Source: Acidobacteriota bacterium (GTDB lineage: Bacteria > Acidobacteriota > UBA6911 > RPQK01 > JAJDTT01). Taken from it: 64,000 nucleotides of DNA. Shown piece after piece: positions 13,663 through 64,000 of this stretch. Both the position numbers and the translations under genes were made by a program. Below the pieces are notes generated by a model, which saw only the letters and a program-made list of their open reading frames with translations, was not told the DNA's origin and made no database searches. The stretch lies in the NCBI GenBank assembly GCA_965263035.1, contig OZ253580.1, forward strand, positions 1,392,196 through 1,456,195, given 5' to 3'. The number at the start of each line of letters is the position of its first letter. Position 1 is the first letter of the stretch.

Positions 13663-13664
13663 GG

Positions 13665-18601: not shown

Positions 18602-18717
18602 AGTGAATGCGAAAACACATCTCTAGGACGATCTGTCAAGTTAGATAAATGAGCCCCTTGGGTTTCCTATCTGAGCCTAACGCTCCAGATGGAAAAAACG
18701 CGAAGCGGAGCGGCGGT

Positions 18718-19971: not shown

Positions 19972-19981
19972 CAAGCAGCCG

Positions 19982-29186: not shown

Positions 29187-29353
29187 CTAGGAGGCTGCGC
29201 CGCAGAAATTGATCTACTGCGAAAGCGGTAGAATCGGTCCATATTTCCTCGATTTCTCGGCGAATAGAACAACTATGCACCTCCAAATCGAGAAAATCTG
29301 GCCTCGATTCCCCACTTTCTCGCTACGATCATTTCTACCGCGCAGACTCCTAG
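29187..29353 (+). repeat. MITE-like ~165-bp repeat, copy A.
   Basis: Same sequence as 50846-51012. Its reverse complement is at 35103-35268. Terminal inverted repeats GAGGCTGCGCCGCAGAAAT ... ATTTCTACCGCGCAGACTC. A CTAG tetranucleotide bounds both ends. Confidence 0.85.
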
Positions 29354-29355
29354 CC

Positions 29356-35102: not shown

Positions 35103-35268
35103 CTAGAGTCTGCGCGGTAGAAATGATCGTAGCGAGAAAGTGGGGAATCGAGGCCAGATTTTCTCGATTTGGAGGTGCATAGTTGTTCTATTCGCCGAGA
35201 AATCGAGGAAATATGGACCGATTCTACCGCTTTCGCAGTAGATCGATTTCTGCGGCGCAGGCTCCTAG
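35103..35268 (-). repeat. MITE-like repeat, copy B (inverted orientation).
   Basis: Reverse complement of copy A. CTAG at both ends (35103-35106 and 35265-35268). Confidence 0.85.
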
Positions 35269-35287
35269 CCTGATTGCCGAAGGGTTC

Positions 35288-48381: not shown

Positions 48382-50843
48382 CTGCCCTATACCCACAAAT
48401 AGTGCTGGACAAACAAGAATGCCTGTCGTAGTCTTCACGACATGGTAGTTCAGAACCAGATCAAGCGCACCTTGAGCCGAGAGTTGGATCGTTTGCACGC
48501 CGTGATGAGGCGGGAGAAGTTCGCCCACCGGACGGCGCTGGCGGACCGGGTCTGCTCGGAGTTTGGATTTCACGATGCCCGAGGGCGGGCGCAACGGAGC
48601 GGCTGCCTGAAGGCGCTCCGGGAGCTGGAGGCGGGCGGACGGATTCGTCTGCCGACGCCGCGACGGCGGGTGAACCATTGCGGGCCCCGAGGACTGGGCC
48701 GTGCGGTGCCGGAGCCGGTCGGGGTGCCCGAGACGGTGGACGGCGTGCGGGAGCTGGAGTTGATTCTGGTGGAGACGGGTCCGCAACGAGCGCTCTGGAA
48801 CGAGTTGATGGCGCGAGAGCATCCACGGGGCGCGGGGCCGTTGGTGGGTGCTCAACTACGCTATCTGGTGGGCTCGGCCCACGGCTGGCTGGGGGGCTTG
48901 GGGTTCGGGGCGGCGGCGTTGCGGTTGCGGGACCGGGACCGCTGGATCGGATGGGATGAGGAACAACGCCGGGCGCACCTGCACCGGGTGGTGGGGCTGA
49001 GCCGGTTTCTGATCCGTCCGTCAGTGAGGTGTCGTAATCTGGCCTCCCGGGTGCTGGGGGAGGTGTTGCGGCGGCTGGGTCCGGAGTTCCAGGCGCGCTA
49101 CGGCTACCGTCCCTGGCTGGTGGAGACCTTCGTGGAGACGGCTCGCCACGATGGGGCCAGTTTGCGCGCCACGAACTGGAGGGTTCTGGGGCAGACGCAG
49201 GGTCGAGGCCGGCAAGATCGGGCGCACCGGGGTGCGGAGACGAGCAAGGCGATCTATGGGTATGAGTTGTGCCGGGATTGGCGGCGGCGGTTGGGGGTGG
49301 GACCGGCGCCGAGGCGGGGAGTGGAACCGATGTCGGAGGGCGAGGGACTGGAGGGAGCGGGCTGGGCTCAGCAGGAGTTGGGCGGGGCGCCGCTGGGAGA
49401 CCGGCGCTTGAGTCGGCGACTGGTGGAGAGTGCGCACCGACAGGCGCAGGAGCCGGGGCGGGCGTTCACGGGAGTGGCGCGGGGGGATTCTGCGGCGGTC
49501 AAGGGATACTACCGGCTGATCGACCAGCCGGAAGCCTCGGCGGTGACGGTGTCCAACATCCTGGCCCCGCACCGGGAGCGGACCCGGCAGCGGATGCAGG
49601 GGCAGCGGACGGTGCTGTGCATCCAGGACGGGAGCGATCTGAACTTCACGCGGCACGGCCGGTGTGAGGGACTGGGAGTGATCGGGCGCAACCAGACGGG
49701 AGCGACGGCGCGGGGACTGCATCTGCACGCGACGCTGGTGGTGAGTGAGACGGGGCTGCCGCTGGGGGTGTTGCGGGCGAAGCTGGACGCGCCGAAGCCG
49801 GGACCGGTGGCCACGCGGAAAAAGAAGAAGACGTATCGCTGGATCGAGGGACTTCGGGACTGCGCCGAGGTGTCGCGGTCCCTCGACGGGGTGCGGGTGG
49901 TCAGCGTGGTGGACCGGGAGGCGGATTTTTTCGCACTGTTCGCCGAGCAACGAGCGTCTCCGGAGGTGGAGTTGCTGGTGCGTGCGAAGCAGGATCGGGT
50001 GCTGAAGAGGAAGACCCCGGCGAAGGCGGCCGGGAAAAGCGCGGATCCGGACCCGGAGCAGAAGCGGAAGCTGTTCGGGCGCCTGCGATCGGCGCCGGTG
50101 CGGGCCCGGATGCTGCTGGAGGTGAAGCGTCAGAGTGCGCGGATCAAGGCCAGCAAGCAGGCGGCCCGCCCGCGGCGGCTGGCGCGGGTGGCTCGGATGG
50201 AACTGCGCTACGAGACCCTGACGATTCCGGCGCCGCGCGGGAACCCAACCGGCATCCCGTCGCTGAGACTGTCGGTGGTGCACGCGCGGGAGGTCGCGCC
50301 GCCGGCGCAGGGGAAGCGCCTGGAATGGTTCCTGCTCACCACCCTGCCGGTGACCGATGTCGAGACGGCGCAGCAACTGCTGAGATGGTATGCGCTGCGC
50401 TGGCGGGTGGAGGATTATTTCCGGGTGCTCAAGACCGGATGCCGGGTACAACAGCTCCAGCACCAAACCGCCGAACGTCTGAAACGGGCCATCGCCATGC
50501 ACGCCGTCATCGCCTGGCGGATCATGCTGATGACGCTGTTGGGGCGAGAGGACCCGGACCTGCCGGCGCAATTGTTGTTTTCCGATCTGGAAATCCGGGT
50601 CCTGGGGGCGTTTGCCGCGTCGCGAGGATTCCCAGCGCCGGAAGACCTGGGGGCGGCCGTGCTCGTGCTGGCCCGCCTGGGAGGATATCTGGCTCGTAAA
50701 CACGACTCCCCACCTGGGCATCAACTGATGTGGCAGGGCTACGTCACGCTCTACGGCATGTGTCTGGGCTTCGCTTTACGAGAAGAAACATGAATGAAAC
50801 CGGACGGCTAATTTGCCCTGTGCAATATGTGGGTAAAGGGCAG
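48382..50843 (+). mobile_element. IS4/Tn5-like insertion sequence, copy 3.
   Basis: 8-bp TSD GGCTAGGA at 48374-48381 and 50844-50851. The right TSD overlaps the start of MITE copy C. Confidence 0.9.
48442..50793 (+). CDS. Fusion transposase, copy 3.
   Basis: 783 aa. It differs from copy 4 at ~2 positions. Confidence 0.85.
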   Translation: MVVQNQIKRTLSRELDRLHAVMRREKFAHRTALADRVCSEFGFHDARGRAQRSGCLKALRELEAGGRIRLPTPRRRVNHCGPRGLGRAVPEPVGVPETVDGVRELELILVETGPQRALWNELMAREHPRGAGPLVGAQLRYLVGSAHGWLGGLGFGAAALRLRDRDRWIGWDEEQRRAHLHRVVGLSRFLIRPSVRCRNLASRVLGEVLRRLGPEFQARYGYRPWLVETFVETARHDGASLRATNWRVLGQTQGRGRQDRAHRGAETSKAIYGYELCRDWRRRLGVGPAPRRGVEPMSEGEGLEGAGWAQQELGGAPLGDRRLSRRLVESAHRQAQEPGRAFTGVARGDSAAVKGYYRLIDQPEASAVTVSNILAPHRERTRQRMQGQRTVLCIQDGSDLNFTRHGRCEGLGVIGRNQTGATARGLHLHATLVVSETGLPLGVLRAKLDAPKPGPVATRKKKKTYRWIEGLRDCAEVSRSLDGVRVVSVVDREADFFALFAEQRASPEVELLVRAKQDRVLKRKTPAKAAGKSADPDPEQKRKLFGRLRSAPVRARMLLEVKRQSARIKASKQAARPRRLARVARMELRYETLTIPAPRGNPTGIPSLRLSVVHAREVAPPAQGKRLEWFLLTTLPVTDVETAQQLLRWYALRWRVEDYFRVLKTGCRVQQLQHQTAERLKRAIAMHAVIAWRIMLMTLLGREDPDLPAQLLFSDLEIRVLGAFAASRGFPAPEDLGAAVLVLARLGGYLARKHDSPPGHQLMWQGYVTLYGMCLGFALREET

Positions 50844-50845
50844 GG

Positions 50846-51012
50846 CTAGGAGCCTGCGCGGCAGAAATTGATCTACTGCGAAAGCGGTAGAATCGGTCCA
50901 TATTTCCTCGATTTCTCGGCGAATAGAACAACTATGCACCTCCAAATCGAGAAAATCTGGCCTCGATTCCCCACTTTCTCGCTACGATCATTTCTACCGC
51001 GCAGACTCCTAG
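50846..51012 (+). repeat. MITE-like repeat, copy C.
   Basis: Identical in organisation to copy A. CTAG at 50846-50849 and 51009-51012; the latter contains the stop codon of the downstream methyltransferase gene. Confidence 0.85.
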
Positions 51013-51533
51013 ACCTCGCCGTAGACCTCCGCAAGGGCCTTGTTCTCGACCCGGATGCGCGTACGGAGCGCTAGCAGGTTCAGCACGGATGCGATCACTG
51101 CCAGTGTCCACGCGCCGAACATCAGCGGCACCACGGCGATCTCGCCGCAAACGATCAGGTAATTCGGGTGGTTGACGTAGCGGTACGGCCCGGCCCGAAT
51201 GCGTTTGGCGCCGGGCACGACCATGACGCGAGTCGTCCATCGCGAACCCAGGGTCACGACCACCCACACCCGCCCGCACTCCAGCAGGACGAAGACGGCC
51301 AGCAGCGGGATCGACACCGGCGTCTGCGGATCGATGGTGCCAAGCAGCGCCAGCAGCCAGCCGGCGTGCAGGGCGACAAGCGCGGGATAGTGCCGCCGGC
51401 CGAACTCGATCGCCCCCCGAGCCACCAGCGCCCGATGGTTGCGCCGTGCGATGCCCAGTTCCACGAGACGCTGAAAAACCAGAAAGCCGATGATCGCGTA
51501 CAGGGGGCTCATGGGAAACGAGCTCAGCATCAC
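51009..51533 (-). CDS. Isoprenylcysteine carboxyl methyltransferase (ICMT)-family membrane methyltransferase.
   Basis: Multi-TM ~170-aa protein with the C-terminal RVENKALAEVYGE-type motif of ICMT/phospholipid methyltransferase family enzymes. It overlaps the PKS gene by 4 bp. Confidence 0.7.
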   Translation of the reverse strand: MMLSSFPMSPLYAIIGFLVFQRLVELGIARRNHRALVARGAIEFGRRHYPALVALHAGWLLALLGTIDPQTPVSIPLLAVFVLLECGRVWVVVTLGSRWTTRVMVVPGAKRIRAGPYRYVNHPNYLIVCGEIAVVPLMFGAWTLAVIASVLNLLALRTRIRVENKALAEVYGEV

Positions 51534-52585
51534 ATCGACTGCAGTAGCAGGAATCCGGCCGAAAACCCCGGGCCCAGGCTGGTCAACAGGTGCCGTTTCG
51601 CCGTGCGGTCCCTGAGCATGCGGTCGAGTACGAACAGCACGGTCGCGGCCGACATGTTGCCGTAGTCACGCAAGACCGCCCGCGACTCTTCGAGCCCCCC
51701 GGGCGGGAGGTCGAACGCCTCTTCGAGGGCGTCAAGCACCTTGGCGCCGCCGGGGTGGCAGACGAAGCTGTCGATATCGCGAAGACCCAGGCTCCGGGTG
51801 GAAAGAAATTCCTCCGTTGCGCGCCGCATGCGCGAACGGACGAGGTCGGGAATACTGCGCGAGAACACGACCCCGAACCCGTCATCGGCCACGTCCCAAC
51901 CCATGATGTCGAGCGAATCAGGCCACGTGTATTCGCCCCACGAGGAGATCGCCGGTCCCGGTCCGTCATCCGTCAGCAATACCGCCGCGGCGCCGTCACG
52001 GAACAACGCCGTGGCGACGAGGTTCCGAACGGATCGATCGCGGCCACGGAACGTGAGGGTGCAGAGTTCTACGACCAGGAACAGAACGCGACTGCCAGGA
52101 GAAGCCCGCGCACAAGCGGCGGCGCGCGCCAGCCCCAGCACGCCTCCTGCGCATCCCAGACCGAAGATCGGCAGTCTTTGCACGTCGCGGCGAAACGGCA
52201 GCTCGGTCATGAGCCTGGCGTCCAGGCTGGGCGTAGCGATGCCGGTCGTCGAGACGGTGACGATCAGGTCGATGTCGCCGGGGTCGGTGTTGCCGGCGGC
52301 CAGGCACTCGACGGCCGCGTCTTTCAGCAGGGCCACCGCATTTTCGAGGTACAGCCGGTTCTTCTCCGCGAAGCCGTGCCCGGTTTCCCCGTACCAGCTT
52401 CTGGGCAGGCAGCAATACCCTTCTCCGATCGCCGCGTTCTCGTAAACATCAAGCAGGCGATCCAGGCCCGCGACGCTGCCGGCAAAGAAACTGGCACCGA
52501 AATCCCTGACCTCGTCCTGGGTTATCCGGTGGGACGGAACCGCCGTCGCGATCGACCTGATTCGCGGACCCGATTCTGCCGTCAC
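51530..52585 (-). CDS. Type III polyketide synthase (chalcone/stilbene synthase family).
   Basis: Catalytic Cys in GLGCAGG, His in CHPGGAKV, Asn in GNMSAATVLFVL, and the GPGFS C-terminal motif. Confidence 0.85.
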   Translation of the reverse strand: MTAESGPRIRSIATAVPSHRITQDEVRDFGASFFAGSVAGLDRLLDVYENAAIGEGYCCLPRSWYGETGHGFAEKNRLYLENAVALLKDAAVECLAAGNTDPGDIDLIVTVSTTGIATPSLDARLMTELPFRRDVQRLPIFGLGCAGGVLGLARAAACARASPGSRVLFLVVELCTLTFRGRDRSVRNLVATALFRDGAAAVLLTDDGPGPAISSWGEYTWPDSLDIMGWDVADDGFGVVFSRSIPDLVRSRMRRATEEFLSTRSLGLRDIDSFVCHPGGAKVLDALEEAFDLPPGGLEESRAVLRDYGNMSAATVLFVLDRMLRDRTAKRHLLTSLGPGFSAGFLLLQSM

Positions 52586-52860
52586 CGGAACCCCTCCTCC
52601 AGTCCAGTTCTCATCGGGAAATCCTCAAGTTATTGATAAATAAGGGATAAGAAGGCGTTTTCAAGTTCCGGTTCCAGCCTGATCATGGGTTAGGCCATTG
52701 GCGACAGATTAAAGACAACAAACGACTTGCACAAGACCGAGTGTTTGATCTTGCGTCGCCACCGGAAAAACCAACTTCGACTGACCAGCCCCTGGCCGGA
52801 CCAAGCGCAACAAGATCCTATAGCTCGCCACCATCCACGATGAAAAGGTCTTGGTTTCTA

Positions 52861-54036
52861 CTATCGTAGCGGGGGGCTCCAGATCGTCGCTCCGATGTAG
52901 CGCTCGGGGCCGGAGGCCTCGTCGGTGAAGTAGTACACCGCGACCACCTTGCCGTCCGGTCTCTGCACGGCTCGGACGTAGCCGATGTCGCGGCTGGCGC
53001 CGTCGTCGCGGAGCGTGACGGGTTCGCTCCAGGTCCGGCCACCGTCGCTACTGAGCACCGCACGAATGCTGTAGGGCTCGGCCCGGTAGCCGTAGAGCAG
53101 GCAGATGCGGCCGTCCCGCAGCCGGATCATGGCGGGCGGGTTGCCGACGCCCGTGTCGGAGACGGCGTCGTTGATGTACTCCCAGGTCGCACCGTTATCG
53201 GTGGACAGGTAGGTCGCGATCCACCGCCTGGGCCCTTCGCGATCGCGGACCGTCACCAGGATGTCGGTTTCGCTGAGCCGCAACGAGGCGGGCATGATGG
53301 AAAACCCCTCCTCCGGCTCGGGGGCGATCCAGGAAAGGAACTTCCAGGTCTTGCCGCCGTCGGTGGTGCGGACACAGAGGGGGCGGCCCTCCCTGCCGTT
53401 GGGCTTCGCGGCCGTGATGAACAGGGTGGAGGTTTCTTGGCCGTCGACGATGTAGTCCGTTCTGGGGGCGATTCCGGGAGTATCGAAGCTGGGTAGCCGG
53501 AACGGGCCGTCCCAGGAGCGCCCGCGGTCGTAGGAGTAGAACACCCGGCCGATTCCGGCGTGAATGCTGTTGGTGCGGACCGTCAGCGCGAAGTCGGGGT
53601 GGGTGAAGTCGATGCCGCCCTCGCTCTCCCGCAAGGGAGGGATGGTCACGCCCGGCCGCGTGACTCCGTGCAGATACCCCCCCTCGGTGAGCAGGTACCC
53701 GTTGGCGCCCGGATCCTCCAGCGACCAGGTCTCACCGCCGTCGAGGCTCCTGGCCAGCATGGGAATCTCGGGTTTTTCGCGATCGATGTGGTGGCTCAGA
53801 CCCTGATCCTTGTAGTAGCCCATGCCGAATCCGACGAGAATCTCCTCATCCCAGATCCAGATCCCGTGGTTGGCCGGCCACCCGCCGAACATGCCTTTCT
53901 CGAAGTAGACCTTGACGTGGCGGGGCTCGTCCGCCGGCTCCGCACCCTCACTGCTCGATCCCGAGTCGCCAGGGACTGTGCAGGCAACGGCCCCGATCGC
54001 CAGCACGCCTGCTGCGGCAATGTTTCTCCAAGTCAT
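52861..54036 (-). CDS. BNR/Asp-box repeat sialidase-like lipoprotein.
   Basis: Lipobox-like AIGAVAC signal. Five Asp-box repeats: SLDGGETW, SYDRGRSW, TTDGGKTW, STDNGATW, SSDGGRTW. Confidence 0.75.
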   Translation of the reverse strand: MTWRNIAAAGVLAIGAVACTVPGDSGSSSEGAEPADEPRHVKVYFEKGMFGGWPANHGIWIWDEEILVGFGMGYYKDQGLSHHIDREKPEIPMLARSLDGGETWSLEDPGANGYLLTEGGYLHGVTRPGVTIPPLRESEGGIDFTHPDFALTVRTNSIHAGIGRVFYSYDRGRSWDGPFRLPSFDTPGIAPRTDYIVDGQETSTLFITAAKPNGREGRPLCVRTTDGGKTWKFLSWIAPEPEEGFSIMPASLRLSETDILVTVRDREGPRRWIATYLSTDNGATWEYINDAVSDTGVGNPPAMIRLRDGRICLLYGYRAEPYSIRAVLSSDGGRTWSEPVTLRDDGASRDIGYVRAVQRPDGKVVAVYYFTDEASGPERYIGATIWSPPLR

Positions 54037-54246
54037 GGGATCCTCCATCTCTTCTTCACATTTCGCCCGAAGCCTATACCGGAATACCCGCCGCCGAACA
54101 TACGGATCCCGGTCAGTGTTGACAAGGCGTGGCGGGTCCCTGTCTTTGGGGTTGGCCGTAGAACGTCCAGGATCGGGCAAGAGTAGAGCCCCTGATCAAC
54201 GCTCCATGCCCAAGCCCGGCAATCTGCTACATTCAATGGACCCGAC

Positions 54247-56358
54247 ATGAACCACAGCCAGATCGCCAGCTTCATTTGGGGCGTGGCGGACCTGATCCGC
54301 GACACCTTCAAACGCGGCAAGTACCAGGACGTGATCCTGCCGCTCACCGTGCTGCGCCGGCTCGACTGCGTGCTGTCCCCTACGAAACCAAAGGTGCTGG
54401 AAGTCCAGGCCAGATTCAGGGGCAAACTCGAGAACCTCGACCCACTGCTTCGGCGCGCCTCCGGATTCGCCTTCTACAACACGTCCCGCTACGACTTCGA
54501 GAAACTGCTCGCCGACGCGCCTCACATCGCGCAGAACCTGCGGAACTACATCGCCGGGTTCAGCCCCAACATGCGGGAGGTGCTGGAGAAGTTCGACTTC
54601 GACAACACCATCTCCAAGCTCGACGAGGCGGGCCTCCTCTTCCTGGTCATGCAGCGGTTCGGCGACCCGAAGGTGAACCTCCACCCGGACGCCATCGACA
54701 ACTTCACCATGGGCACGATCTTCGAGGAGCTCATCCGTAAGTTCAACGAGGCGCTGAACGAGAACCCCGGCGAACACTTCACGCCCCGCGATGTGGTCCA
54801 TCTCATGGTGGACCTGATGCTGGCCGGTGACGAGGAAGAACTGCGCAAGAAGGGCGTTGCGCGGAGCGTCTACGACCCTTGCTGTGGCTCAGGCGGCATG
54901 CTCACCATCGCCAAGGAGCACACGACCCTCGGCGAGATACGAGAGGGCAAGCGGCTGGGCGACCCCGTGAACCCGGACGCTCACATCCACCTGTTCGGCC
55001 AGGAGGTGAACCCGGAAACGTTCGCGATCTGCAAGTCCGACCTCTTCATGAAGTCGAAAGACGGCCGCGACGCGAAGAAGATCCTGTTCGGGAGCACGCT
55101 CTCGAACGATCGGCACGCCGGAACCGGCTTCGACTACATGATCGCCAATCCTCCCTACGGCAAAGACTGGAAGCGCGACCAGGACGCAGTACGGGGCGAG
55201 CACGATCGAGGCGCTGCCGGCCGCTTCGCACCGGGCCTGCCGCGGATCAGCGACGGCCAGCTCCTGTTCCTGCTGCACATGCTCGCGCACGCCAAAGAAC
55301 CGGCCCAGGGCGGCTCCCGGGTGGCCATCATCATGAACGGCTCGCCGCTCTTCACCGGCGACGCCGGCAGCGGCGAGAGCGAAATCCGCCGCTGGATCCT
55401 TGAGAACGACCTGCTCGAGGCGCTCATCGCGCTGCCCGAGCAGCTCTTCTACAACACGGGGATCGCCACCTACGTCTGGGTGCTCACGAACCGGAAACGG
55501 CCCGAGCGGCGCGGCAAGGTCCAGCTCATCCACGCCACGTCGTTCTGGGTCCTGCTGCGAAAGAGCCTGGGCGCCAAACGCCGCGAAGTCCCGTTCGACC
55601 GCAAGGAGGACGTCCTGCGGCTGCTGGAGGACTTCGAGGACGGCGCGACCCGCAAGGTGGACGATAACGGCGAGGAACGGGAGGTGGTCGTCAGCCGCAT
55701 CTATCCCACCACCCGGTTCGGCTTTCGCAAGATCACGGTGGAACGGCCGCTTCGGCTCGATTTCCAGGCCAGCCCCGAGCGGATCGCGCGGCTCGACGAC
55801 CAGCGCGCCTTCGTCAACCTGGCCCGGTCCCGCAAGAAGGGCCCAGCCAAGGCCAAGGACGAGGCGGCGGGCCGCGAGAAGCAGGCCGCGATCCGCGCCC
55901 TCCTCCGTAGTCTGCCCGACCGGCTCTTCCTGGATCGGGCTGTCTTCGAATCCGAACTCTCCCGGGCAACGCAAACTGCCGGGCTGAAACTCACCGCGCC
56001 TCTAAAAAAAGCCGTGCTCTCCGCCCTGTCCGAGCGAAACACCGAAGCCGCGGTCTGCCGGGACCGAAAGGGCCGCCCGGAGCCCGATCCGCAGCTCCGC
56101 GACACGGAGAACGTGCCTCTCCTGGAGGACGTAGAGTCGTTCTTCGAGCGCGAGGTGAGGCCCCACGTTCCCGACGCCTGGATCGATTCTAAGCGCCGGG
56201 ACCCCCAGGACGGAAAGGTCGGGCTTGTGGGCTACGAGTTCAACTTCAATCGCTACTTCTACGAATACCGACCGCCCCGTCCCTTGGAGGAGATCGAGGC
56301 CGACATCCGGCGGGTGGAGAAGGAGATCGCGGCGATGCTGGAAGAGACGCGCGGTTGA
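54247..56358 (+). CDS. hsdM: Type I restriction-modification N6-adenine DNA methyltransferase subunit M (long form).
   Basis: HsdM_N start MNHSQIASFIWGVADLIRDTFKRGKYQDVILPLTVLRR. SAM motifs DPCCGSGGML and NPPYG. ~200-aa C-terminal extension. Confidence 0.85.
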   Translation: MNHSQIASFIWGVADLIRDTFKRGKYQDVILPLTVLRRLDCVLSPTKPKVLEVQARFRGKLENLDPLLRRASGFAFYNTSRYDFEKLLADAPHIAQNLRNYIAGFSPNMREVLEKFDFDNTISKLDEAGLLFLVMQRFGDPKVNLHPDAIDNFTMGTIFEELIRKFNEALNENPGEHFTPRDVVHLMVDLMLAGDEEELRKKGVARSVYDPCCGSGGMLTIAKEHTTLGEIREGKRLGDPVNPDAHIHLFGQEVNPETFAICKSDLFMKSKDGRDAKKILFGSTLSNDRHAGTGFDYMIANPPYGKDWKRDQDAVRGEHDRGAAGRFAPGLPRISDGQLLFLLHMLAHAKEPAQGGSRVAIIMNGSPLFTGDAGSGESEIRRWILENDLLEALIALPEQLFYNTGIATYVWVLTNRKRPERRGKVQLIHATSFWVLLRKSLGAKRREVPFDRKEDVLRLLEDFEDGATRKVDDNGEEREVVVSRIYPTTRFGFRKITVERPLRLDFQASPERIARLDDQRAFVNLARSRKKGPAKAKDEAAGREKQAAIRALLRSLPDRLFLDRAVFESELSRATQTAGLKLTAPLKKAVLSALSERNTEAAVCRDRKGRPEPDPQLRDTENVPLLEDVESFFEREVRPHVPDAWIDSKRRDPQDGKVGLVGYEFNFNRYFYEYRPPRPLEEIEADIRRVEKEIAAMLEETRG

Positions 56359-56491
56359 CGCCGACCCGTCTGCGGCGGCTGCGGGCCAAGCAGACCGAGA
56401 GGAGACTGTCGCCGCTCCCCGTCAGTCTCCTTCGTGCGATTCACAGCAGTTGACACGCACTCGACGCCACAAGACTTCCGGTTCTACCTCC

Positions 56492-56520
56492 TTGACACAC
56501 ACCATGTGTGGCTCTAGGAT
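56492..56520 (+). promoter_or_regulatory. Sigma70-like promoter with an embedded operator-like inverted repeat for the VapBC-like pair.
   Basis: TTGACA (56492-56497), a 17-bp spacer and TAGGAT (56515-56520). The spacer contains CACAC-CAT-GTGTG. It sits immediately upstream of the antitoxin ATG at 56529. Confidence 0.4.
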
Positions 56521-56528
56521 CACGGACC

Positions 56529-56834
56529 ATGGGAGATACGCGGCGAGTCCAAGTGACGCTCGATGCGAGGGGATACGCGGCGGTGTCGCGGATTGCACGA
56601 CGCGAAGGGAAGAAGCTGGCCGCAGTCGTGCGGGAGGCCGTCGAGCAGTACTGCGTTCTGCCGGAGGCGCGGCAACGGCGACTGGAGGCCATCGACAGGC
56701 TGTACGCGACGGGGGCGGTCCCAGCGCCAGAATCGCTGCCGGAGTGGGAACGCCAGTACAGTCGGCTGAAGGTCGGCCTGGCTACCGACTGTCTCCACAC
56801 CACCGAAGGTCCGGGAAGTCACGAGGACAGTTGA
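56529..56834 (+). CDS. Ribbon-helix-helix (CopG/VapB-like) antitoxin.
   Basis: ~100 aa. The N-terminal RRVQVTLDARGYAAVSRIARREG is RHH-like. Its stop overlaps the start of the PIN gene (TTGA). Confidence 0.6.
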   Translation: MGDTRRVQVTLDARGYAAVSRIARREGKKLAAVVREAVEQYCVLPEARQRRLEAIDRLYATGAVPAPESLPEWERQYSRLKVGLATDCLHTTEGPGSHEDS

Positions 56835-57259
56835 CGAGCGTGCGTGATTCACTGTTCGTGGACGCCAACGTGTTCATGTACCTCGCGGGCGGTGATGCCC
56901 TGTACCGGGAGGCCTGCCGACGGGCTCTGTTGGCCGCGACTGAGCAGGGGACCATGTTGATCACCAGCACAGAAGTACTGCAGGAGATCCTCCATTACCA
57001 TGTCGCCCGAAGGCGGCCCGAAAACGCCCGGACCGTGTACCGGGCAGTGACAGACATCTGCGACGAGATCCTGCCGGTGACGGAACACCAAACGGCCCGT
57101 GCGCTCGAACTGCTGGTGCGGCATCCCGGGTTGCCGGCACGAGACGCCCTGCACGTCGCGACGATGGAGGTCCACGGCGTCGAGCGGCTGCTGTCGGCAG
57201 ACCGGCACTTCGATCAGATCGACACCGTCACGCGTGTCGACCCGCTCGCCCCCCCTTGA
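56831..57259 (+). CDS. vapC: PIN-domain toxin (VapC-like).
   Basis: LFVDANVFMY N-terminal Asp, conserved acidic residues (TSTEVLQE, DALHVA) and ~140 aa. It is the 3' part of a longer track ORF in the same frame. Confidence 0.65.
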   Translation: MTSVRDSLFVDANVFMYLAGGDALYREACRRALLAATEQGTMLITSTEVLQEILHYHVARRRPENARTVYRAVTDICDEILPVTEHQTARALELLVRHPGLPARDALHVATMEVHGVERLLSADRHFDQIDTVTRVDPLAPP

Positions 57260-57533
57260 TCCTCCGCCTGCACTGGACGACAAACAGGCGGAGAATGAGA
57301 CCGCCGTCATGCTGCAGGACATGACGGCGAGTTGATCTCCGGGCGCGTGCGCCTCGGGCACGCGAGATCCCAGCCGAGCGGTTCGAGCCGGATTGAACAC
57401 GCAGAGTGGCAGCCTCTCTGGCACAGACTGCGCTGGGCGCGCCCTCGCCGGTGTTTTCGCCGTTTGCCGGCGCCTCGCTCAAGGGGATGGCGGAGCGACG
57501 GCTTCGGCGGCCTGGGCGAATCAGGAACAAACT

Positions 57534-57559
57534 GTCGGCACTTGTTTTTATGTGCCGAC
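57534..57559 (+). promoter_or_regulatory. Inverted repeat, candidate AbiEi operator upstream of abiEi.
   Basis: GTCGGCAC-ttgtttttat-GTGCCGAC, a perfect 8-bp arm IR 20 bp upstream of the abiEi ATG. AbiEi antitoxins are known to autoregulate via promoter inverted repeats. Confidence 0.4.
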
Positions 57560-57580
57560 AATCATTACGATTCTTTCATG

Positions 57581-58180
57581 ACTGAACTCACTGCTGCCGC
57601 GCTCGAAGAAGCCGGCATTGGAGCCTTTTTCCGGCCGCGAGACATTGAGGCGCTCGGTGTCCCGTACCGTCGCCTCCGCGGACTCGTTGCGGCCGGTGCC
57701 GTGGAGAACCTCGGCGGCGGCCTTTACCGGCTGGCCGAGGTCGAGCCGACCGAGCTGGAAACGGTCGCCATGGTGGCTGCTGCCGTGCCGCACGCGATCG
57801 TCTGCCTGATGACCGCGCTCCGCGTCCACCAGATCGGAACCGAGTCCCCTCACGAGGTCTGGATAGCCATCAACCGCAAGGCGCGCCGGCCCACCCGAGT
57901 GCCGGCGCAGATTCGCGTCGTCTGGTTCTCGAAGGCGATGCTCACATACGGGGTCGTGCGCCGCCCGATGCTCGGCGTGCCGGTTGCGATCACATCGCCG
58001 GCCCGGACGGTCGTCGACTGCTTCCGGTACCGCAACAAGTTCGGCCTCGACACCGCGCTGGAGGCGCTCCGGGACGTGCTGCGCCAACGGCTCGCCACCG
58101 TGGATGAGATCATGCGCGCAGCCAGCGTCTGCCGGGCTCGCACGGTCCTGCAGCCCTACATGGAAGCGGTTCTGTCGTGA
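57581..58180 (+). CDS. abiEi: AbiEi-family type IV antitoxin / transcriptional regulator.
   Basis: ~200 aa. N-terminal winged-helix region (FFRPRDIEALGVPYRRLRGLVAAGAVENLGGGLYRL) typical of AbiEi/COG5340. 4-bp overlap with abiEii. Confidence 0.7.
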   Translation, partial: TELTAAALEEAGIGAFFRPRDIEALGVPYRRLRGLVAAGAVENLGGGLYRLAEVEPTELETVAMVAAAVPHAIVCLMTALRVHQIGTESPHEVWIAINRKARRPTRVPAQIRVVWFSKAMLTYGVVRRPMLGVPVAITSPARTVVDCFRYRNKFGLDTALEALRDVLRQRLATVDEIMRAASVCRARTVLQPYMEAVLS

Positions 58181-59127
58181 CGAGACGCCATCTCAAGAAC
58201 GTCGCGGCGTCCGTCCGTGCCCGGCTGCTCGCCCGCAGTCGCGAAACCGGCGAGGATTTCCAGTTTCTCCTGTGGAGGTACGTGGTCGAACGATTCCTTT
58301 TCCGTCTTAGCCATTCCCCCTACCGTGATCGCTTCGTTCTGAAAGGGGCCATGCTCTTCGCTCTCTGGAACGAGGCGTTCCACCGGCAGACCCAGGACAT
58401 TGACTTCGCCGCCTACGGCGACTCGGAAACCGACGACTTTGTGACGGAGTTGCAGCAAGTTTGCTGTACCGGCGTTGACGACGACGGCGTTGTCTTCCAC
58501 GCCGACCAGATCAGCAGCAGCACAATCCGCGGCACAACGGACAAGGGCGGCACCCGCTACCGCTTCCCGGCGACCGTTGGCGGAGCCCGCATAACCGTGC
58601 AGGTCGACATCGGCGTCGGCGACTCGATTCAGCCACCGCCGGAGGATGCCGAATTCCCGACGCTGCTCGACACCGCCCCGTGCCACGTTCGTGCGTATCC
58701 GAAGGAAGCGGTCGTCTCCGAGAAGTTCCACGCTACGGTCGCACACGGTGAGCGGACGAGCCGCTACAAGGACTTCTTCGACCTGTACGAATTGGCTCGG
58801 TGCTTCCGCTTCGACGGCGTGCGACTCGTGCAGGCCCTTGTCGCGACTTTCGAGAGCCGTAGTTCACCGACCGAAGCGGTCCCGCTCTCCCTGACCAGCG
58901 GCTTCTATACAGACACGGCGCGAGGCGAACGCTGGCGGGCCTATCTGACCAAGCGCGGGCGCCTGCCGGCGCCCATGGACTTCGGTGCTGTCGGTGAACT
59001 CGTCACGCTCTTCCTGGCACCGCCGTGGCGCGCCCTGTTACGTAGGGACCGATTTATAGCCGCGTGGCCTGCCGGCGGGCCGTGGCGGCCCGGGATTCGG
59101 GCCCGGACGGGAGGTGAAGGACTGTGA
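58177..59127 (+). CDS. abiEii: AbiEii/AbiGii-family nucleotidyltransferase toxin (DUF1814).
   Basis: N-terminal MTRRHLKNVAASVRARLL...FQFLLWRYVVERFLFRL and the NTase motif KGAMLF...DIDFA. Confidence 0.75.
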   Translation: MTRRHLKNVAASVRARLLARSRETGEDFQFLLWRYVVERFLFRLSHSPYRDRFVLKGAMLFALWNEAFHRQTQDIDFAAYGDSETDDFVTELQQVCCTGVDDDGVVFHADQISSSTIRGTTDKGGTRYRFPATVGGARITVQVDIGVGDSIQPPPEDAEFPTLLDTAPCHVRAYPKEAVVSEKFHATVAHGERTSRYKDFFDLYELARCFRFDGVRLVQALVATFESRSSPTEAVPLSLTSGFYTDTARGERWRAYLTKRGRLPAPMDFGAVGELVTLFLAPPWRALLRRDRFIAAWPAGGPWRPGIRARTGGEGL

Positions 59128-59261
59128 CCGAAGGAACCGATCGGAAGGAGGAGGCGCGGCCGCGGCGTTTTCGGCCGTACCCTGAGTACAGTGACTCCGG
59201 TATCGAGTCGCTGGGCGAAATTCCGGCACATTGGGACGTGAGACGGCTCAAGACCCTAGCC
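59124..59261 (+). pseudogene. hsdS: Type I R-M specificity subunit HsdS, 5' fragment (gene split by IS copy 4).
   Basis: Encodes VTEGTDRKEEARPRRFRPYPEYSDSGIESLGEIPAHWDVRRLKTLA. IPAHWDVRRLK is HsdS N-terminus-like. The frame is broken by the IS at 59262. Confidence 0.7.
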
Positions 59262-61723
59262 CTGCCCTATACCCACAAATAGTGCTGGACAAACAAGAAT
59301 GCCTGTCGTAGTCTTCACGACATGGTAGTTCAGAACCAGATCAAGCGCACCTTGAGCCGAGAGTTGGATCGTTTGCACGCCGTGATGAGGCGGGAGAAGT
59401 TCGCCCACCGGACGGCGCTGGCGGACCGGGTCTGCTCGGAGTTTGGATTTCACGATGCCCGAGGGCGGGCGCAACGGAGCGGCTGCCTGAAGGCGCTCCG
59501 GGAGTTGGAGGCGCGCGGACGGATTCGTCTGCCGACGCCGCGACGGCGGGTGAAACATTGCGGGCCCCGAGGACTGGGCCGTGCGGTGCCGGAGCCGGTC
59601 GGGGTGCCCGAGACGGTGGACGGCGTGCGGGAGCTGGAGTTGATTCTGGTGGAGACGGGTCCGCAACGAGCGCTCTGGAACGAGTTGATGGCGCGAGAGC
59701 ATCCACGGGGCGCGGGGCCGTTGGTGGGTGCTCAACTACGCTATCTGGTGGGCTCGGCCCACGGCTGGCTGGGGGGCTTGGGGTTCGGGGCGGCGGCGTT
59801 GCGGTTGCGGGACCGGGACCGCTGGATCGGATGGGATGAGGAACAACGCCGGGCGCACCTGCACCGGGTGGTGGGGCTGAGCCGGTTTCTGATCCGTCCG
59901 TCAGTGAGGTGTCGTAATCTGGCCTCCCGGGTGCTGGGGGAGGTGTTGCGGCGGCTGGGTCCGGAGTTCCAGGCGCGCTACGGCTACCGTCCCTGGCTGG
60001 TGGAGACCTTCGTGGAGACGGCTCGCCACGATGGGGCCAGTTTGCGCGCCACGAACTGGAGGGTTCTGGGGCAGACGCAGGGTCGAGGCCGGCAAGATCG
60101 GGCGCACCGGGGTGCGGAGACGAGCAAGGCGATCTATGGGTATGAGTTGTGCCGGGATTGGCGGCGGCGGTTGGGGGTGGGACCGGCGCCGAGGCGGGGA
60201 GTGGAACCGATGTCGGAGGGCGAGGGACTGGAGGGAGCGGGCTGGGCTCAGCAGGAGTTGGGCGGGGCGCCGCTGGGAGACCGGCGCTTGAGTCGGCGAC
60301 TGGTGGAGAGTGCGCACCGACAGGCGCAGGAGCCGGGGCGGGCGTTCACGGGAGTGGCGCGGGGGGATTCTGCGGCGGTCAAGGGATACTACCGGCTGAT
60401 CGACCAGCCGGAAGCCTCGGCGGTGACGGTGTCCAACATCCTGGCCCCGCACCGGGAGCGGACCCGGCAGCGGATGCAGGGGCAGCGGACGGTGCTGTGC
60501 ATCCAGGACGGGAGCGATCTGAACTTCACGCGGCACGGCCGGTGTGAGGGACTGGGAGTGATCGGGCGCAACCAGACGGGAGCGACGGCGCGGGGACTGC
60601 ATCTGCACGCGACGCTGGTGGTGAGTGAGACGGGGCTGCCGCTGGGGGTGTTGCGGGCGAAGCTGGACGCGCCGAAGCCGGGACCGGTGGCCACGCGGAA
60701 AAAGAAGAAGACGTATCGCTGGATCGAGGGACTTCGGGACTGCGCCGAGGTGTCGCGGTCCCTCGACGGGGTGCGGGTGGTCAGCGTGGTGGACCGGGAG
60801 GCGGATTTTTTCGCACTGTTCGCCGAGCAACGAGCGTCTCCGGAGGTGGAGTTGCTGGTGCGTGCGAAGCAGGATCGGGTGCTGAAGAGGAAGACCCCGG
60901 CGAAGGCGGCCGGGAAAAGCGCGGATCCGGACCCGGAGCAGAAGCGGAAGCTGTTCGGGCGCCTGCGATCGGCGCCGGTGCGGGCCCGGATGCTGCTGGA
61001 GGTGAAGCGTCAGAGTGCGCGGATCAAGGCCAGCAAGCAGGCGGCCCGCCCGCGGCGGCTGGCGCGGGTGGCTCGGATGGAACTGCGCTACGAGACCCTG
61101 ACGATTCCGGCGCCGCGCGGGAACCCAACCGGCATCCCGTCGCTGAGACTGTCGGTGGTGCACGCGCGGGAGGTCGCGCCGCCGGCGCAGGGGAAGCGCC
61201 TGGAATGGTTCCTGCTCACCACCCTGCCGGTGACCGATGTCGAGACGGCGCAGCAACTGCTGAGATGGTATGCGCTGCGCTGGCGGGTGGAGGATTATTT
61301 CCGGGTGCTCAAGACCGGATGCCGGGTACAACAGCTCCAGCACCAAACCGCCGAACGTCTGAAACGGGCCATCGCCATGCACGCCGTCATCGCCTGGCGG
61401 ATCATGCTGATGACGCTGTTGGGGCGAGAGGACCCGGACCTGCCGGCGCAATTGTTGTTTTCCGATCTGGAAATCCGGGTCCTGGGGGCGTTTGCCGCGT
61501 CGCGAGGATTCCCAGCGCCGGAAGACCTGGGGGCGGCCGTGCTCGTGCTGGCCCGCCTGGGAGGATATCTGGCTCGTAAACACGACTCCCCACCTGGGCA
61601 TCAACTGATGTGGCAGGGCTACGTCACGCTCTACGGCATGTGTCTGGGCTTCGCTTTACGAGAAGAAACATGAATGAAACCGGACGGCTAATTTGCCCTG
61701 TGCAATATGTGGGTAAAGGGCAG
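59262..61723 (+). mobile_element. IS4/Tn5-like insertion sequence, copy 4, inserted in hsdS.
   Basis: 8-bp TSD CCCTAGCC at 59254-59261 and 61724-61731. Confidence 0.9.
59322..61673 (+). CDS. Fusion transposase, copy 4.
   Basis: 783 aa. All DDE residues are intact. Confidence 0.85.
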   Translation: MVVQNQIKRTLSRELDRLHAVMRREKFAHRTALADRVCSEFGFHDARGRAQRSGCLKALRELEARGRIRLPTPRRRVKHCGPRGLGRAVPEPVGVPETVDGVRELELILVETGPQRALWNELMAREHPRGAGPLVGAQLRYLVGSAHGWLGGLGFGAAALRLRDRDRWIGWDEEQRRAHLHRVVGLSRFLIRPSVRCRNLASRVLGEVLRRLGPEFQARYGYRPWLVETFVETARHDGASLRATNWRVLGQTQGRGRQDRAHRGAETSKAIYGYELCRDWRRRLGVGPAPRRGVEPMSEGEGLEGAGWAQQELGGAPLGDRRLSRRLVESAHRQAQEPGRAFTGVARGDSAAVKGYYRLIDQPEASAVTVSNILAPHRERTRQRMQGQRTVLCIQDGSDLNFTRHGRCEGLGVIGRNQTGATARGLHLHATLVVSETGLPLGVLRAKLDAPKPGPVATRKKKKTYRWIEGLRDCAEVSRSLDGVRVVSVVDREADFFALFAEQRASPEVELLVRAKQDRVLKRKTPAKAAGKSADPDPEQKRKLFGRLRSAPVRARMLLEVKRQSARIKASKQAARPRRLARVARMELRYETLTIPAPRGNPTGIPSLRLSVVHAREVAPPAQGKRLEWFLLTTLPVTDVETAQQLLRWYALRWRVEDYFRVLKTGCRVQQLQHQTAERLKRAIAMHAVIAWRIMLMTLLGREDPDLPAQLLFSDLEIRVLGAFAASRGFPAPEDLGAAVLVLARLGGYLARKHDSPPGHQLMWQGYVTLYGMCLGFALREET

Positions 61724-61731
61724 CCCTAGCC

Positions 61732-62970
61732 TCGGTGCAACTGAGCAATGTCGACAAGAAAACCGTAGAAGGCCAAGCTCCCGTAAAACTCTGCAACTAC
61801 GTCGACGTTTACTACAATGACTTCATCACCGCCGGGCTCGAATTCATGAACGCAACCGCCACACCCGAACAGGTGCGGCGATTCATGCTCCGGGGCGGCG
61901 ATGTTTTGATCACCAAGGACTCGGAATCCTGGAATGACATAGCAGTCCCCGCTGTCGTGGTCGAAGAACTGACGGATGTCCTGTGTGGATACCACCTGGC
62001 ACAAATCAGGCCGCGATCAGGTCTTGATGGGCGGTTTCTTGCCCGCCAATTCTCGGCGATTGGCACCCGGGACCAGTTCCATCTTGCGGCCAACGGAATA
62101 ACACGGTTCGGCTTGGGTGGAGATGCAATCCGTAGCGGTCTGTTTCCGATCGCGCCGATCGAGGAACAACAAGTCATCGCTGACTTCCTTGACCGCGAGA
62201 CGGCGAAGATCGATGCGTTGGTGGAGCAGAAGGAGCGGCTGGTTGAGTTGCTTCAGGAGAAGCGCAGCGCTTTCATCGCCCGTGCCGTCACCCGGGGCCT
62301 CGACCCGAACGTCCCCATGAAGGACTCCGGCGTCGAGTGGCTGGGCGAGATCCCGACACACTGGAAGCTTAAGCCGCTCAAGCGTCTTCTAAGCCGAAGT
62401 GACTATGGAATATCGGAGAGCTTGGGAGTAGGAGGTGATATCCGGGTTCTAACTATGGCGCACATTCAAAATGGCGAGGTTGTATTGCCCCATGATGGCA
62501 GCATCAGTGAAATCGACCGGTCAATGAGGCTTGAGTCCGGCGACCTTCTGTTCAACAGAACCAACAGCCGTGAGCTCGTAGGTAAGGTCGGTATATTTCG
62601 TGGCAACCACGATGATTGCGTGACCTTTGCATCGTACCTTGTAAGGTTAACCCCGCGTCAGCACGTCGAACCCGAATGGCTAAACTACCTGCTCAACTCC
62701 ACTGGCGTTCTTGGAATGGCGCGAAGCATGGCATTACTTAGTGTAAACCAAGCCAATCTCAACCCAACCAAGCACCAGCAAATTATCATACCTGTGCCCG
62801 CACCCGCTGAACAGCGAACCATCGCAGGTTTCTTACGCGGGGAGACCGCGAAGATCGATTCCCTCATCGTCAAGATCCGGCAAGCAATCAGCTACCTCCA
62901 CGAATTTCGCACCGCTCTTATCTCCGCGGCGGTCACCGGCAAGATTGATGTCCGGGAGGAAGCGTCATGA
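61732..62970 (+). pseudogene. hsdS: HsdS, 3' fragment (both target-recognition domains).
   Basis: Continues in frame from the 5' fragment once the IS and one TSD copy are removed (...LKTLA|SVQLSNVDKK...). It contains the conserved HsdS coiled-coil repeats LDRETAKIDALVEQKERLVELLQEKRSAFI and LRGETAKIDSLIVKIRQAISYLHEFRTALISAAVTGKIDV. Confidence 0.75.
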
Positions 62971-64000
62971 GCCCCGAGGTATCTGAGCGAGCCTTCGAAG
63001 AGGCGATCGAGTGTTCGCTACTTCGAGATGGTCCGGACGCCTGCCCGGGCGACGCGATGACAGTGAGGGAATCGCCACGGGCATACGGTGCCGAGCCGGT
63101 GCCAGGCGGCTACCACAGACGGCGTCCGGAGGACTTCGACCGCAGGCTCTGCCTGATCACGGCCGACGTTGTCGACTTCCTCCTCGCCACCCAGCCGAAG
63201 GAGTGGGAGAAGCTCAAGCAGCACCACGGTGCCGACGTGAAGCCCCGCTTCCTGGGCCGGCTCTCGCGTGAGATCACCCGGCGGGGGGCGCTCGACGTGT
63301 TGCGCAACGGCGTCAAGGACTCGGGCTGCAAGTTCCGGATGGCGTACTTCCGGCCGGCGAGCGGGCTCAACGAGGAATTGCAGCGCCTGCACGGGGCCAA
63401 CCTCTTCGCTGTTGTGCGCCAGCTCCGCTTCAGCGAGAAGACTGAGCAGAGTGTCGATCTCGCCCTCTTCCTGAACGGCATCCCCGTCTTCACGGCCGAG
63501 CTCAAGAACCCGCTCAACGGGCAGGATGTCGAGGACGCAATCCGGCAGTACAAGCACGACCGGGACCCTCGCGAGCCGCTCTTCGGCTACGGACGCTGCC
63601 TCGCCCATTTCGCCGTGGACCCGGAGCAGGTGTTCGTGACGACCCAACTCGCCGGGCCCAGGACCCGGTTCCTGCCATTCAACCAGGGACGCTTCGGCGG
63701 TGCGGGGAATCCTCCGATCCCGCCCACTCGTACGGGCTTCCCGACCGACTACCTGTGGGAGCGGATCTGGGCCCGCGACAGCGTCCTCGATCTCGTCCGG
63801 CAGTTCATCCACGAGGTCGAGGTGGAGGACGACCGCGGGCGCAGAACCGGCAAGCGGATCCTGATCTTCCCGCGTTTCCAGCAGCTCGCCTGCGTGCGCC
63901 GGCTCGTGCGTCACGCACGCAACCACGGCGCCGGTGAGCGCTACCTGATCCAGCATTCTGCCGGCAGCGGCAAGAGCTTCACCATCGCCTGGCTCGCCCA
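62967..64000 (+). CDS. hsdR: Type I restriction enzyme R subunit HsdR, 3' partial (runs off window).
   Basis: The ATG at 62967 overlaps the hsdS stop. The frame is open to the window end. HsdR N-terminal nuclease region (FLNGIPVFTAELKNPLNGQDVEDAIRQY) and helicase motif I (HSAGSGKSFTIAWLA). It is not in the ORF track because it has no stop in the window. Confidence 0.75.
   Translation, partial: MSPEVSERAFEEAIECSLLRDGPDACPGDAMTVRESPRAYGAEPVPGGYHRRRPEDFDRRLCLITADVVDFLLATQPKEWEKLKQHHGADVKPRFLGRLSREITRRGALDVLRNGVKDSGCKFRMAYFRPASGLNEELQRLHGANLFAVVRQLRFSEKTEQSVDLALFLNGIPVFTAELKNPLNGQDVEDAIRQYKHDRDPREPLFGYGRCLAHFAVDPEQVFVTTQLAGPRTRFLPFNQGRFGGAGNPPIPPTRTGFPTDYLWERIWARDSVLDLVRQFIHEVEVEDDRGRRTGKRILIFPRFQQLACVRRLVRHARNHGAGERYLIQHSAGSGKSFTIAWLA

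Follow-up and report, generated by a model that had tools for sequence, protein, structure and literature searches.

An IS4-family element resident in the genome splits the type I specificity gene hsdS of an Acidobacteriota bacterium

Does a type I restriction-modification (R-M) system still operate after a mobile element has entered its specificity gene, and what determines the point of entry? This question is raised by the hsdS gene in a 64,000-nt stretch of an Acidobacteriota genome (contig OZ253580.1, positions 1,392,196 to 1,456,195; hereafter referred to as the window), which a preliminary description had interpreted as being split by an insertion sequence (IS). We confirmed that this type I hsdS is split by a resident IS, and that removal of the IS together with one copy of its target-site duplication restores the gene in frame. 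It is considered highly probable that the IS transposed recently into the only CTAG of hsdS and thereby caused a one-way knock-out at the strain level, of which the position was set by target availability and which is not a programmed switch.

The split hsdS gene and the inserted element

The interrupted gene and the interrupting element were assigned as follows.

59124–59261, + strand: hsdS 5′ fragment, 46 native codons, with a GTG start at 59124
59254–59261, no strand: left copy of the target-site duplication, CCCTAGCC, a perfect 8 bp
59262–61723, + strand: IS copy 4, IS4 family, 2462 bp, with inverted repeats at 59262–59288 and 61697–61723
59322–61673, + strand: transposase gene, 783 aa, with a DruA/DUF4338-like N-terminal domain, Tnp_DNA_bind, DDE_Tnp_1, and a Tn5 dimerisation domain
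61724–61731, no strand: right copy of the target-site duplication, CCCTAGCC, a perfect 8 bp
61732–62970, + strand: hsdS 3′ fragment, encoding what is left of recognition domain 1, followed by the central helix, recognition domain 2, and the C-terminal helix

The GTG start of hsdS overlaps the stop codon of the upstream gene abiEii (visible as GTGA in the sequence) and is preceded by a strong Shine-Dalgarno sequence (GGGAGGTGAAGGA). The translated native part of the 5′ fragment, ...YSDSGIESLGEIPAHWDVRRLKTLA, ended with ...GEIPAHWDVRRLKTLA at 59261, which agrees in both coordinates and sequence with the HsdS-like N-terminus proposed earlier. Past this position, the open reading frame (ORF) continued through 6 IS-encoded codons (LPYTHK) and stopped at the TAG of 59280–59282. 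The 3′ frame, which is preceded by an in-frame TAA within the IS (61714–61716), reopened at 61732 (SVQLSNVDKK...) and ran to the stop codon at 62968–62970. Counted from 61732 it contains 412 codons, and the length of 411 aa given previously holds when it is counted from the first possible start in the remnant, GTG 61735. Hence hsdS does not form a single uninterrupted reading frame and is a disrupted member of its family: 2470 bp, comprising the IS and one target duplicate, lie between codons 46 and 47, leaving a stub of 52 aa and a remnant of 412 codons. In-silico excision and translation were performed by joining 59124–59261 to 61732–62970, which gave 1377 nt containing one ORF. This confirmed the expected in-frame restoration of a single hsdS, though with a size of 458 aa instead of the estimated ~457 aa.

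The 458-aa product was identified as HsdS. Its domain 1 matched Pfam Methylase_S (PF01420) with 41.7 bits against a cut-off of 22; for domain 2, no match at E ≤ 0.01 was returned. A profile search with the reconstructed sequence gave EcoKI HsdS (8.6e-38) as the best sequence match among solved structures, and many homologues of 456–470 aa covered 100% of it, with identities of up to 81%. The 3′ remnant matched the NCBIfam type I S-subunit model NF007278 with an E-value of 7e-35, which is under the cut-off of that model. An AlphaFold model of the reconstructed protein was built with 47 sequences and exhibited a predicted local distance difference test score (pLDDT) of 88.9 and a predicted template modelling score (pTM) of 0.81. 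As modelled, domain 1 (residues 22–186) is followed by a long helix (189–234), domain 2 (242–401), and a second long helix (404–447); the sequences of the two helices are similar. Foldseek returned HsdS structures as the best matches of this model, namely 1yf2, 2y7c (EcoKI), 3okg, and 5ybb, with E-values from 1e-17 to 6e-24. The predicted alternation of two recognition domains with two long helices, the Methylase_S match, and the adjacency to hsdM and hsdR are all consistent with an HsdS assignment.

The part removed by the insertion is a conserved one. The stub carries Y19, P34, and W37, which are invariant in the family alignment, as well as other near-invariant residues, and its motif recurs internally as DSGVEWLGEIPTHWKLKPLKRL, where it opens the second recognition domain. 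Residues 22–50 were modelled as strands and a helix at pLDDT 90–96, and include invariant or near-invariant positions. The cut after residue 46 takes off the strands 22–24, 32–34, and 38–41 and the helix 42–45, and splits the strand 46–50. The remnant had been described as running through both recognition domains, which stands for domain 2 and for both helices, but domain 1 is present without its first strands.

The inserted element was assigned to the IS4 family. Its transposase scored 300.8 bits against NCBIfam transpos_IS4_3 (NF033590; cut-off, 160) and matched Pfam Tnp_DNA_bind, DDE_Tnp_1, and Dimer_Tnp_Tn5. The ends of the IS, CTGCCCTATACCCACAAATAGTGCTGG and (as the reverse complement) CTGCCCTTTACCCACATATTGCACAGG, agree at 21 of the 27 inverted-repeat positions. 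The window contains this end motif 8 times, where 0.01 occurrences would be expected. Starting with CTG...TATAC.CACAA, the ends resemble the outside end of Tn5. Three more copies were located in the window.

11198–13662, + strand: IS copy 1
29356–31817, + strand: IS copy 2
48382–50843, + strand: IS copy 3, 8.4 kb upstream of copy 4, with its own duplication GGCTAGGA

All four copies lie on the + strand, and they are 98.5–99.9% identical to copy 4; copy 3 differs from it at 3 of 2462 nt (99.9% identity) and has the same orientation. The 783-aa transposase ORF is intact in every copy, and each of the four is flanked by a perfect 8-bp duplication (GGCTAGCT, TCCTAGCC, GGCTAGGA, and CCCTAGCC). A DDE transposase, inverted repeats combined with a duplication of fixed length, and mobility, as seen from the several copies and from presence or absence between strains, are all in keeping with the IS4 family. 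The earlier proposal of an IS with flanking duplications within hsdS was borne out in this manner, with CCCTAGCC on both sides of 59262–61723. A Tn5-style duplication of 9 bp was also considered and was rejected, since a one-base shift of the boundary fails for copies 3 and 4 and the empty sites described below overlap by exactly 8 nt. As copies 3 and 4 each possess their own duplication, they represent independent insertions. It was also observed that these two copies bracket, in direct orientation, 8.4 kb that contains hsdM and both toxin-antitoxin modules (48382–61723), and recombination between them would delete the bracketed segment.

A separate observation concerns the N-terminal part of the transposase. 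Residues ~1–300 (59322–60230) constitute a DruA/DUF4338 domain (Pfam, 3.6e-31), which is likewise present in the copies starting at 11198, 29356, and 48382. The DruA domain is named after a Druantia defence protein. DUF4338 has also been termed GNAT-like (PMC10853773). Literature searches for a fusion of DruA/DUF4338 with a transposase found no description of it. When the transposase was compared with plasmid records by tblastn, only distant IS4-family matches of ≤36% identity were obtained over residues ~304–780 (the C-terminal 60%), and these plasmid-borne relatives are without the DruA/DUF4338 domain. The 90%-identity cluster to which the transposase belongs contains 340 member sequences.

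Empty sites, allele variation, and the choice of target

The uninterrupted site was recovered from related assemblies, of which the loci are denoted here by L numbers. The L002 locus holds the predicted excision product GACGGCTCAAGACCCTAGCCTCGGTGCAACTGAGC verbatim, and its hsdS is 99.5–99.9% identical to the reconstruction. The L002 protein P0049 is identical to the reconstructed HsdS over residues 1–259, across the junction, save that the start codon is read as M, and its residues 1–46 are 100% identical to the stub. In L001, a 6.4-Mb contig that is 98% identical to and collinear with the window, IS copies 3 and 4 are both absent, and adjoining alignment blocks have exactly 8 nt in common at either IS site, indicating that the target is present once. 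Copy 4 is also absent from the syntenic site of L087. Since these relatives carry empty sites, the insertion is recent and strain-specific, and it is real. The strain variant supposed in the preliminary description is thus supported by the alleles of L001, L002, and L087, and the comparison with related strains that it had proposed led to the exact predicted empty site in L002. A JGI metagenome scan for the 20-nt left flank gave no match.

Other alleles at the hsdS position were found through a look-up of the identical GreA protein, which is encoded 6 kb upstream. The index lists this protein in 36 blocks, and 20 contigs encoding it were read. Gene order is common to the ten shown, and at least ten contigs with DNA 97–99% identical to the window share the locus. 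Alternative hsdS alleles were read at ~18818–20221 of L091, L092, L094, L096, and L097. They encode 427–466 aa and are 35–64% identical to the window allele, in contigs that are ~97–98% identical. The ORFs of L091, L092, L096, and L097 are complete (427–466 aa), and that of L094 (447 aa) runs off its locus. Judged from their sequences, these allele differences represent ordinary type I specificity polymorphism, which is extensive at this one chromosomal locus.

The window-type allele itself was recovered from four assemblies, none of which has it undamaged, and the damage differs each time. In L002 (10001–13145), a 1764-bp IS1380-type element with inverted repeats CCCGCATTTCTCATCA and CCCGAATATCTCATCA is inserted at TTAA after residue 259, with TTAA as its duplication, and the resulting product of 268 aa consists of domain 1 and the full central helix. 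In L001, hsdS contains frameshifts, and hsdR and abiEii are frameshifted too. In the L087 segment 9461–10846, which corresponds to window 59185–62161, the N-terminal half of hsdS contains 12 indels, all within ~550 bp; the other ~6.7 kb of its 7.3-kb locus has no indels, and hsdM and hsdR are intact there. A 4-bp deletion of L087 exactly at the IS target was considered as an excision footprint. It is one of the 12 clustered indels, which may represent real decay, a footprint, or a poor consensus. A GTDB scan with the reconstructed HsdS gave a Vicinamibacterales metagenome-assembled genome (MAG) as the nearest species representative, with 77% identity. In a Vicinamibacterales MAG locus (L012, 10001–14668), an orthologous hsdS (74–77% identical) is interrupted at a single CTAG by two ISs in tandem, of the IS5/IS1182 and IS1380 types respectively, and excision of both in silico gave a 461-aa ORF. 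This CTAG is part of the sequence TGG CTA GGC, which belongs to the second WLGEIP motif. Of all these lesions, those caused by ISs are solid, and those of the indel type, which come from long-read metagenome contigs, may be consensus errors.

One further locus, L098 of another strain, was noted for its arrangement. At 17929–20465 it contains the same IS (98.7% identical), which abuts a 40-nt stretch matching an internal part of hsdM (window 55785–55824). The sequence of this stretch is ...CAACCTAGCC, as against ...CAACCTGGCC in the window, and the stretch is located downstream of abiEi, with a full hsdM also present upstream. The arrangement suggests either an IS-mediated rearrangement or a chimeric contig.

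Why the IS entered hsdS, and at this position, was answered by the distribution of CTAG. The IS-free window contains 16 CTAG in 54,117 bp, as compared with 63–185 expected from composition. The IS occupies four of these, and the 8-mer on which each IS copy sits is centred on CTAG. A GGCTAG/CTAGCC half-site is present at each of the four occupied sites, and the window has only seven such sites. The IS sequence contains no CTAG. A single CTAG is present in hsdS (nt 133), and it is there that the IS entered; hsdM contains none, and the CTAG of hsdS is indeed the sole one among hsdM, hsdS, and the in-window part of hsdR. Target preference and target scarcity hence suffice to explain why and where hsdS was hit, and no selection need be invoked. 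To take the earlier idea of a resident IS disarming host defence in an adaptive sense is likewise unnecessary, given this preference and the only CTAG lying in hsdS.

A repeat resembling a miniature inverted-repeat transposable element (MITE) was also observed at CTAG sites. It is ~170 bp in length, partly self-complementary, and present in three copies that are ~98–99% identical (29187–29357, 35106–35270 on the − strand, and 50844–51016). At its ends (CTAG|GAGCCTGCGCGGCAGAAAT...), the repeat agrees with the inverted repeats borne by the full-length IS5/IS1182-type element in L012. IS copies 2 and 3 are placed exactly on CTAG flanking two of these MITE-like repeats.

Consequence for the R-M system and rival readings

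In the mechanism that we propose, an active IS4-family (Tn5/IS50-like) element transposed recently into hsdS. Its transposase cut with an 8-bp stagger around the only CTAG of the gene (CCCTAGCC, codons 44–46), which produced the flanking 8-bp duplication. The stub would be translated but useless. The remnant would be short of the first four strands and the helix of domain 1, and its ribosome binding is expected to be poor, as GTG 61735 is accompanied only by AAAGGG at 14 nt upstream and has no Shine-Dalgarno sequence within normal spacing; a functional S subunit would thus not be formed. In type I systems, an M2S1 core is needed for both methylation and restriction. Without this core, neither activity would be targeted, and the strain would be negative for restriction and modification (r− m−) with respect to this system, with HsdM and HsdR still coding. 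Because the M2S1 core is required and the model shows the core strands of domain 1 to be lost, the type I system is very probably switched off in this strain.

Several points weigh against this conclusion. We infer the inactivity from type I biology and from the predicted model, in which domain 2 remains intact in the remnant and the two helices are kept. In orientation, the IS agrees with the operon, and it has no terminator-like site at its right end, so that downstream transcription is possible, and hsdR is provided with its own Shine-Dalgarno sequence (GAGGAA). A promoter and terminator scan of 59000–63100 detected neither a sigma-70-like site nor a terminator near the IS ends, although the promoter rules of the host may differ. 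The source contig of known depth is a 4x long-read contig, and the search for another hsdS covered the 64-kb window only. Truncated HsdS proteins can moreover function as homodimers in type IC systems, and active examples include EcoDXXI::Tn5, an N-terminal deletion of EcoDXXI, EcoR124I delta-50, and NgoAV (PMC3874165).

These points bear on two readings in which some activity is kept. The 411-aa remnant, or a shorter internal product, might join HsdM, perhaps as a domain-2 homodimer with a new, possibly palindromic specificity. Such residual or altered function is made conceivable by EcoDXXI, for which S subunits active as homodimers are reported both after a Tn5 insertion in hsdS and after an engineered deletion at the N-terminus (PMC3874165), by the retention in the remnant of domain 2 and both mutually similar helices, and by the lack of a terminator-like site at the IS end. 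The remnant is, however, not a clean half-subunit, since domain 1 deprived of four strands and a helix likely misfolds; it would also have to be translated from a GTG that has no properly spaced Shine-Dalgarno sequence, and working half-subunits are documented only for type IC (PMC3874165). We regard this function as quite improbable. Another hsdS in the same genome might alternatively pair with this HsdM and HsdR. A candidate exists in L089, which shares its sample of origin with the 346-kb source contig, has a depth of 3x near the 4x of that contig, and encodes an intact HsdS of 468 aa with 79% identity and very similar conserved regions; the L088 locus that it matches possesses HsdM and HsdR 86% identical to those of the window. 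On the other hand, L089 is 99.1% identical to this L088 locus, which belongs to a different 6.43-Mb contig with its own hsdM and hsdR. In another sample, the L088 contig has a depth of 70x versus 3.9x for the window-type locus (L002), so the two are in different organisms there, and L089 most likely belongs to another organism. No second hsdS was detected by tblastn in the 64-kb window, where the best other match (E = 0.079 at 24395–24700) was treated as chance. A functional back-up is accordingly seen as improbable. The window also has a 576-aa ORF at 23996–25726 with weak tblastn matches to HsdS (E = 0.079 and 6), which were treated as chance as well.

The remaining readings concern the origin of the split. 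The loss of this hsdS allele may have been favoured, for instance as a means to ease DNA uptake or to avoid self-restriction, with the IS being one of a set of convergent knock-outs. The four broken alleles in four assemblies, each with a different lesion and each beside an hsdM still encoding 703 aa, are consistent with this selection, as is the 77%-identical orthologue in L012 that was split by two further ISs at one CTAG. Against it, target availability explains the IS positions without selection, the frameshift-type lesions in metagenome contigs of 4–94x long-read depth may be consensus errors, and the other alleles at the locus are unbroken in ~97–98% identical contigs. We consider a selected disarming unlikely. 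It is similarly doubtful that the convergent lesions (three unrelated IS types and frameshifts, in five assemblies) arose from selection to shed or re-tune this specificity and that the 268-aa product of L002 serves, as a homodimer, as an S subunit that recognises a new palindromic motif; if true, nature would with this product have repeated the EcoDXXI::Tn5 experiment. A reversible ON/OFF switch, in which precise excision of the IS at a useful rate toggles hsdS within the population, would fit the intact-site alleles in related assemblies, and the 8-bp direct repeats could in principle allow rare slippage-mediated precise excision. The contigs with the empty site, however, belong to other strains with 97–98% identical flanks. 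Cut-and-paste excision of Tn5 and Tn10 leaves the target unrestored, and precise excision is a rare host-mediated accident. Phase-variable loci are recognised by extra partial hsdS cassettes together with a recombinase, or by a simple-sequence repeat, and neither was found here: the locus has no such cassettes, no recombinase gene is among the genes called within it, and simple-sequence repeats are absent from hsdM and hsdS, the two weak arrays at the locus both lying inside the transposase gene. The switch or reversion suggested in the preliminary description is for these reasons not upheld, and we assign it a very low probability. Finally, the IS could have been mis-joined into hsdS during assembly, for which the low coverage (4x) and the existence of at least four near-identical IS copies may be cited. 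A mis-join would not yield a perfect 8-bp duplication or an exact in-frame restoration, and the same remnant ORF is present on a second contig of 6.198 Mb. This artefact was rejected on the duplication and the second contig, and is hardly credible.

The reading of a recent, target-directed, one-way knock-out is therefore preferred. It describes an ordinary IS knock-out of a defence gene, the direct importance of which is small, and IS insertions in R-M genes are often described in the literature. The modest extras are the CTAG targeting, the DruA-like domain of the transposase, and the repeated independent lesions of the allele. The locus is a clean and well-documented case, in an uncultured soil bacterium, of a defence gene inactivated by a resident IS, for which the ancestral empty site was recovered from relatives, and it illustrates that the position of a knock-out can follow the target preference of an IS, here for the rare CTAG. 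Annotation software that recognises defence systems by counting hsdM and hsdR would list this strain as armed, which it very probably is not. With its many alleles and several independent lesions, the locus may also suit the study of natural turnover of type I specificity.

The operon and its comparison with known systems

The following genes neighbour hsdS in the window.

54247–56358, + strand: hsdM, intact, 703 aa, with Pfam HsdM_N and N6_Mtase and the motifs DPCCGSG (residue 210) and NPPY (residue 301)
56529–56834, + strand: ribbon-helix-helix antitoxin-like gene (vapB-like), 101 aa, with a weak Pfam RHH_1 match; called in the identical contig
56840–57259, + strand: PIN-domain toxin gene (vapC-like), 139 aa (Pfam PIN, 7.9e-16)
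57578–58180, + strand: abiEi-like antitoxin gene (Pfam AbiEi_4 and AbiEi_1, both slightly under their cut-offs)
58177–59127, + strand: abiEii nucleotidyltransferase toxin gene (Pfam AbiEii, 3.3e-44)
62967–64000, + strand: 5′ part of hsdR, 344 codons, running off the window (Pfam HSDR_N), with an ATG that overlaps the hsdS stop codon (ATGA)

This is a chromosomal type I operon in the order hsdM, vapBC-like pair, abiEi/abiEii, hsdS, and hsdR. The preliminary description took both hsdM and hsdR as intact. For hsdM this proved right, as the 703-aa product possesses both methylase motifs and has the same length in L001, L002, and L087. For hsdR, only the first 344 codons are readable from the window, and its intactness was established from the contig ERZ25068833:ctg57957_4x_l (L086, 346 kb), which matches the window with 100% identity along 12,266 bp and in which hsdR forms a single ORF of 1178 aa (11233–14769) with HSDR_N, ResIII/DEAD, SWI2_SNF2, T1R_D3-like, and AlbA_2 domains. 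Two contigs on record, one of 346 kb and the other of 6.198 Mb, carry both the exact 411-aa remnant and the exact HsdM. As for accessory features, cargo genes occupy the interval between hsdM and hsdS (56529–59127), consisting of the ribbon-helix-helix and PIN pair and of AbiEi and AbiEii, and related loci have Fic, HigB, or an AAA_13 protein as cargo at the same place. The AlbA_2 (Schlafen-like) domain is located at the C-terminal end of HsdR.

The inserted element is similar to IS50/Tn5 in its DDE transposase with Tn5-type N-terminal DNA-binding and C-terminal dimerisation domains, and in its short target duplications. It differs in the extra N-terminal DruA/DUF4338 domain of ~300 aa, in the duplication of 8 bp as compared with 9 bp in Tn5, and in the strong preference for CTAG-centred targets. 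The R-M system is comparable to EcoKI-like systems, which form M2S1 and R2M2S1 complexes, in that it has the hsdM, hsdS, and hsdR trio and an HsdS with two recognition domains and two long helices. It is distinguished from them by a long HsdM (703 aa), by the two toxin-antitoxin/abortive-infection modules between hsdM and hsdS, and by an HsdR with a C-terminal AlbA_2 domain.

Phase-variable type I systems rely on inversion shufflons of hsdS (SpnD39III, tvr) or on simple-sequence repeats in hsdS or hsdM. The present locus shares with them that hsdS variation changes or abolishes specificity within a species. It has, however, no inverted partial cassettes, site-specific recombinase, or repeat tract, and the variation occurs between strains by way of recognition-domain alleles and IS insertions. 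IS-interrupted hsdS genes have been reported from staphylococci, mycoplasmas, and lactococci. Close parallels are the hsdS of EcoDXXI::Tn5 and the naturally fragmented hsdS of NgoAV, in which the specificity gene is likewise interrupted while hsdM and hsdR stay intact (PMC3874165). The cut in the window differs from theirs in being near the N-terminus (codon 46/47), within recognition domain 1, which leaves no clean half-subunit composed of a domain plus a helix. It is the L002 allele, with 268 aa comprising domain 1 and the central helix, that has the half-subunit layout of EcoDXXI::Tn5 and NgoAV.

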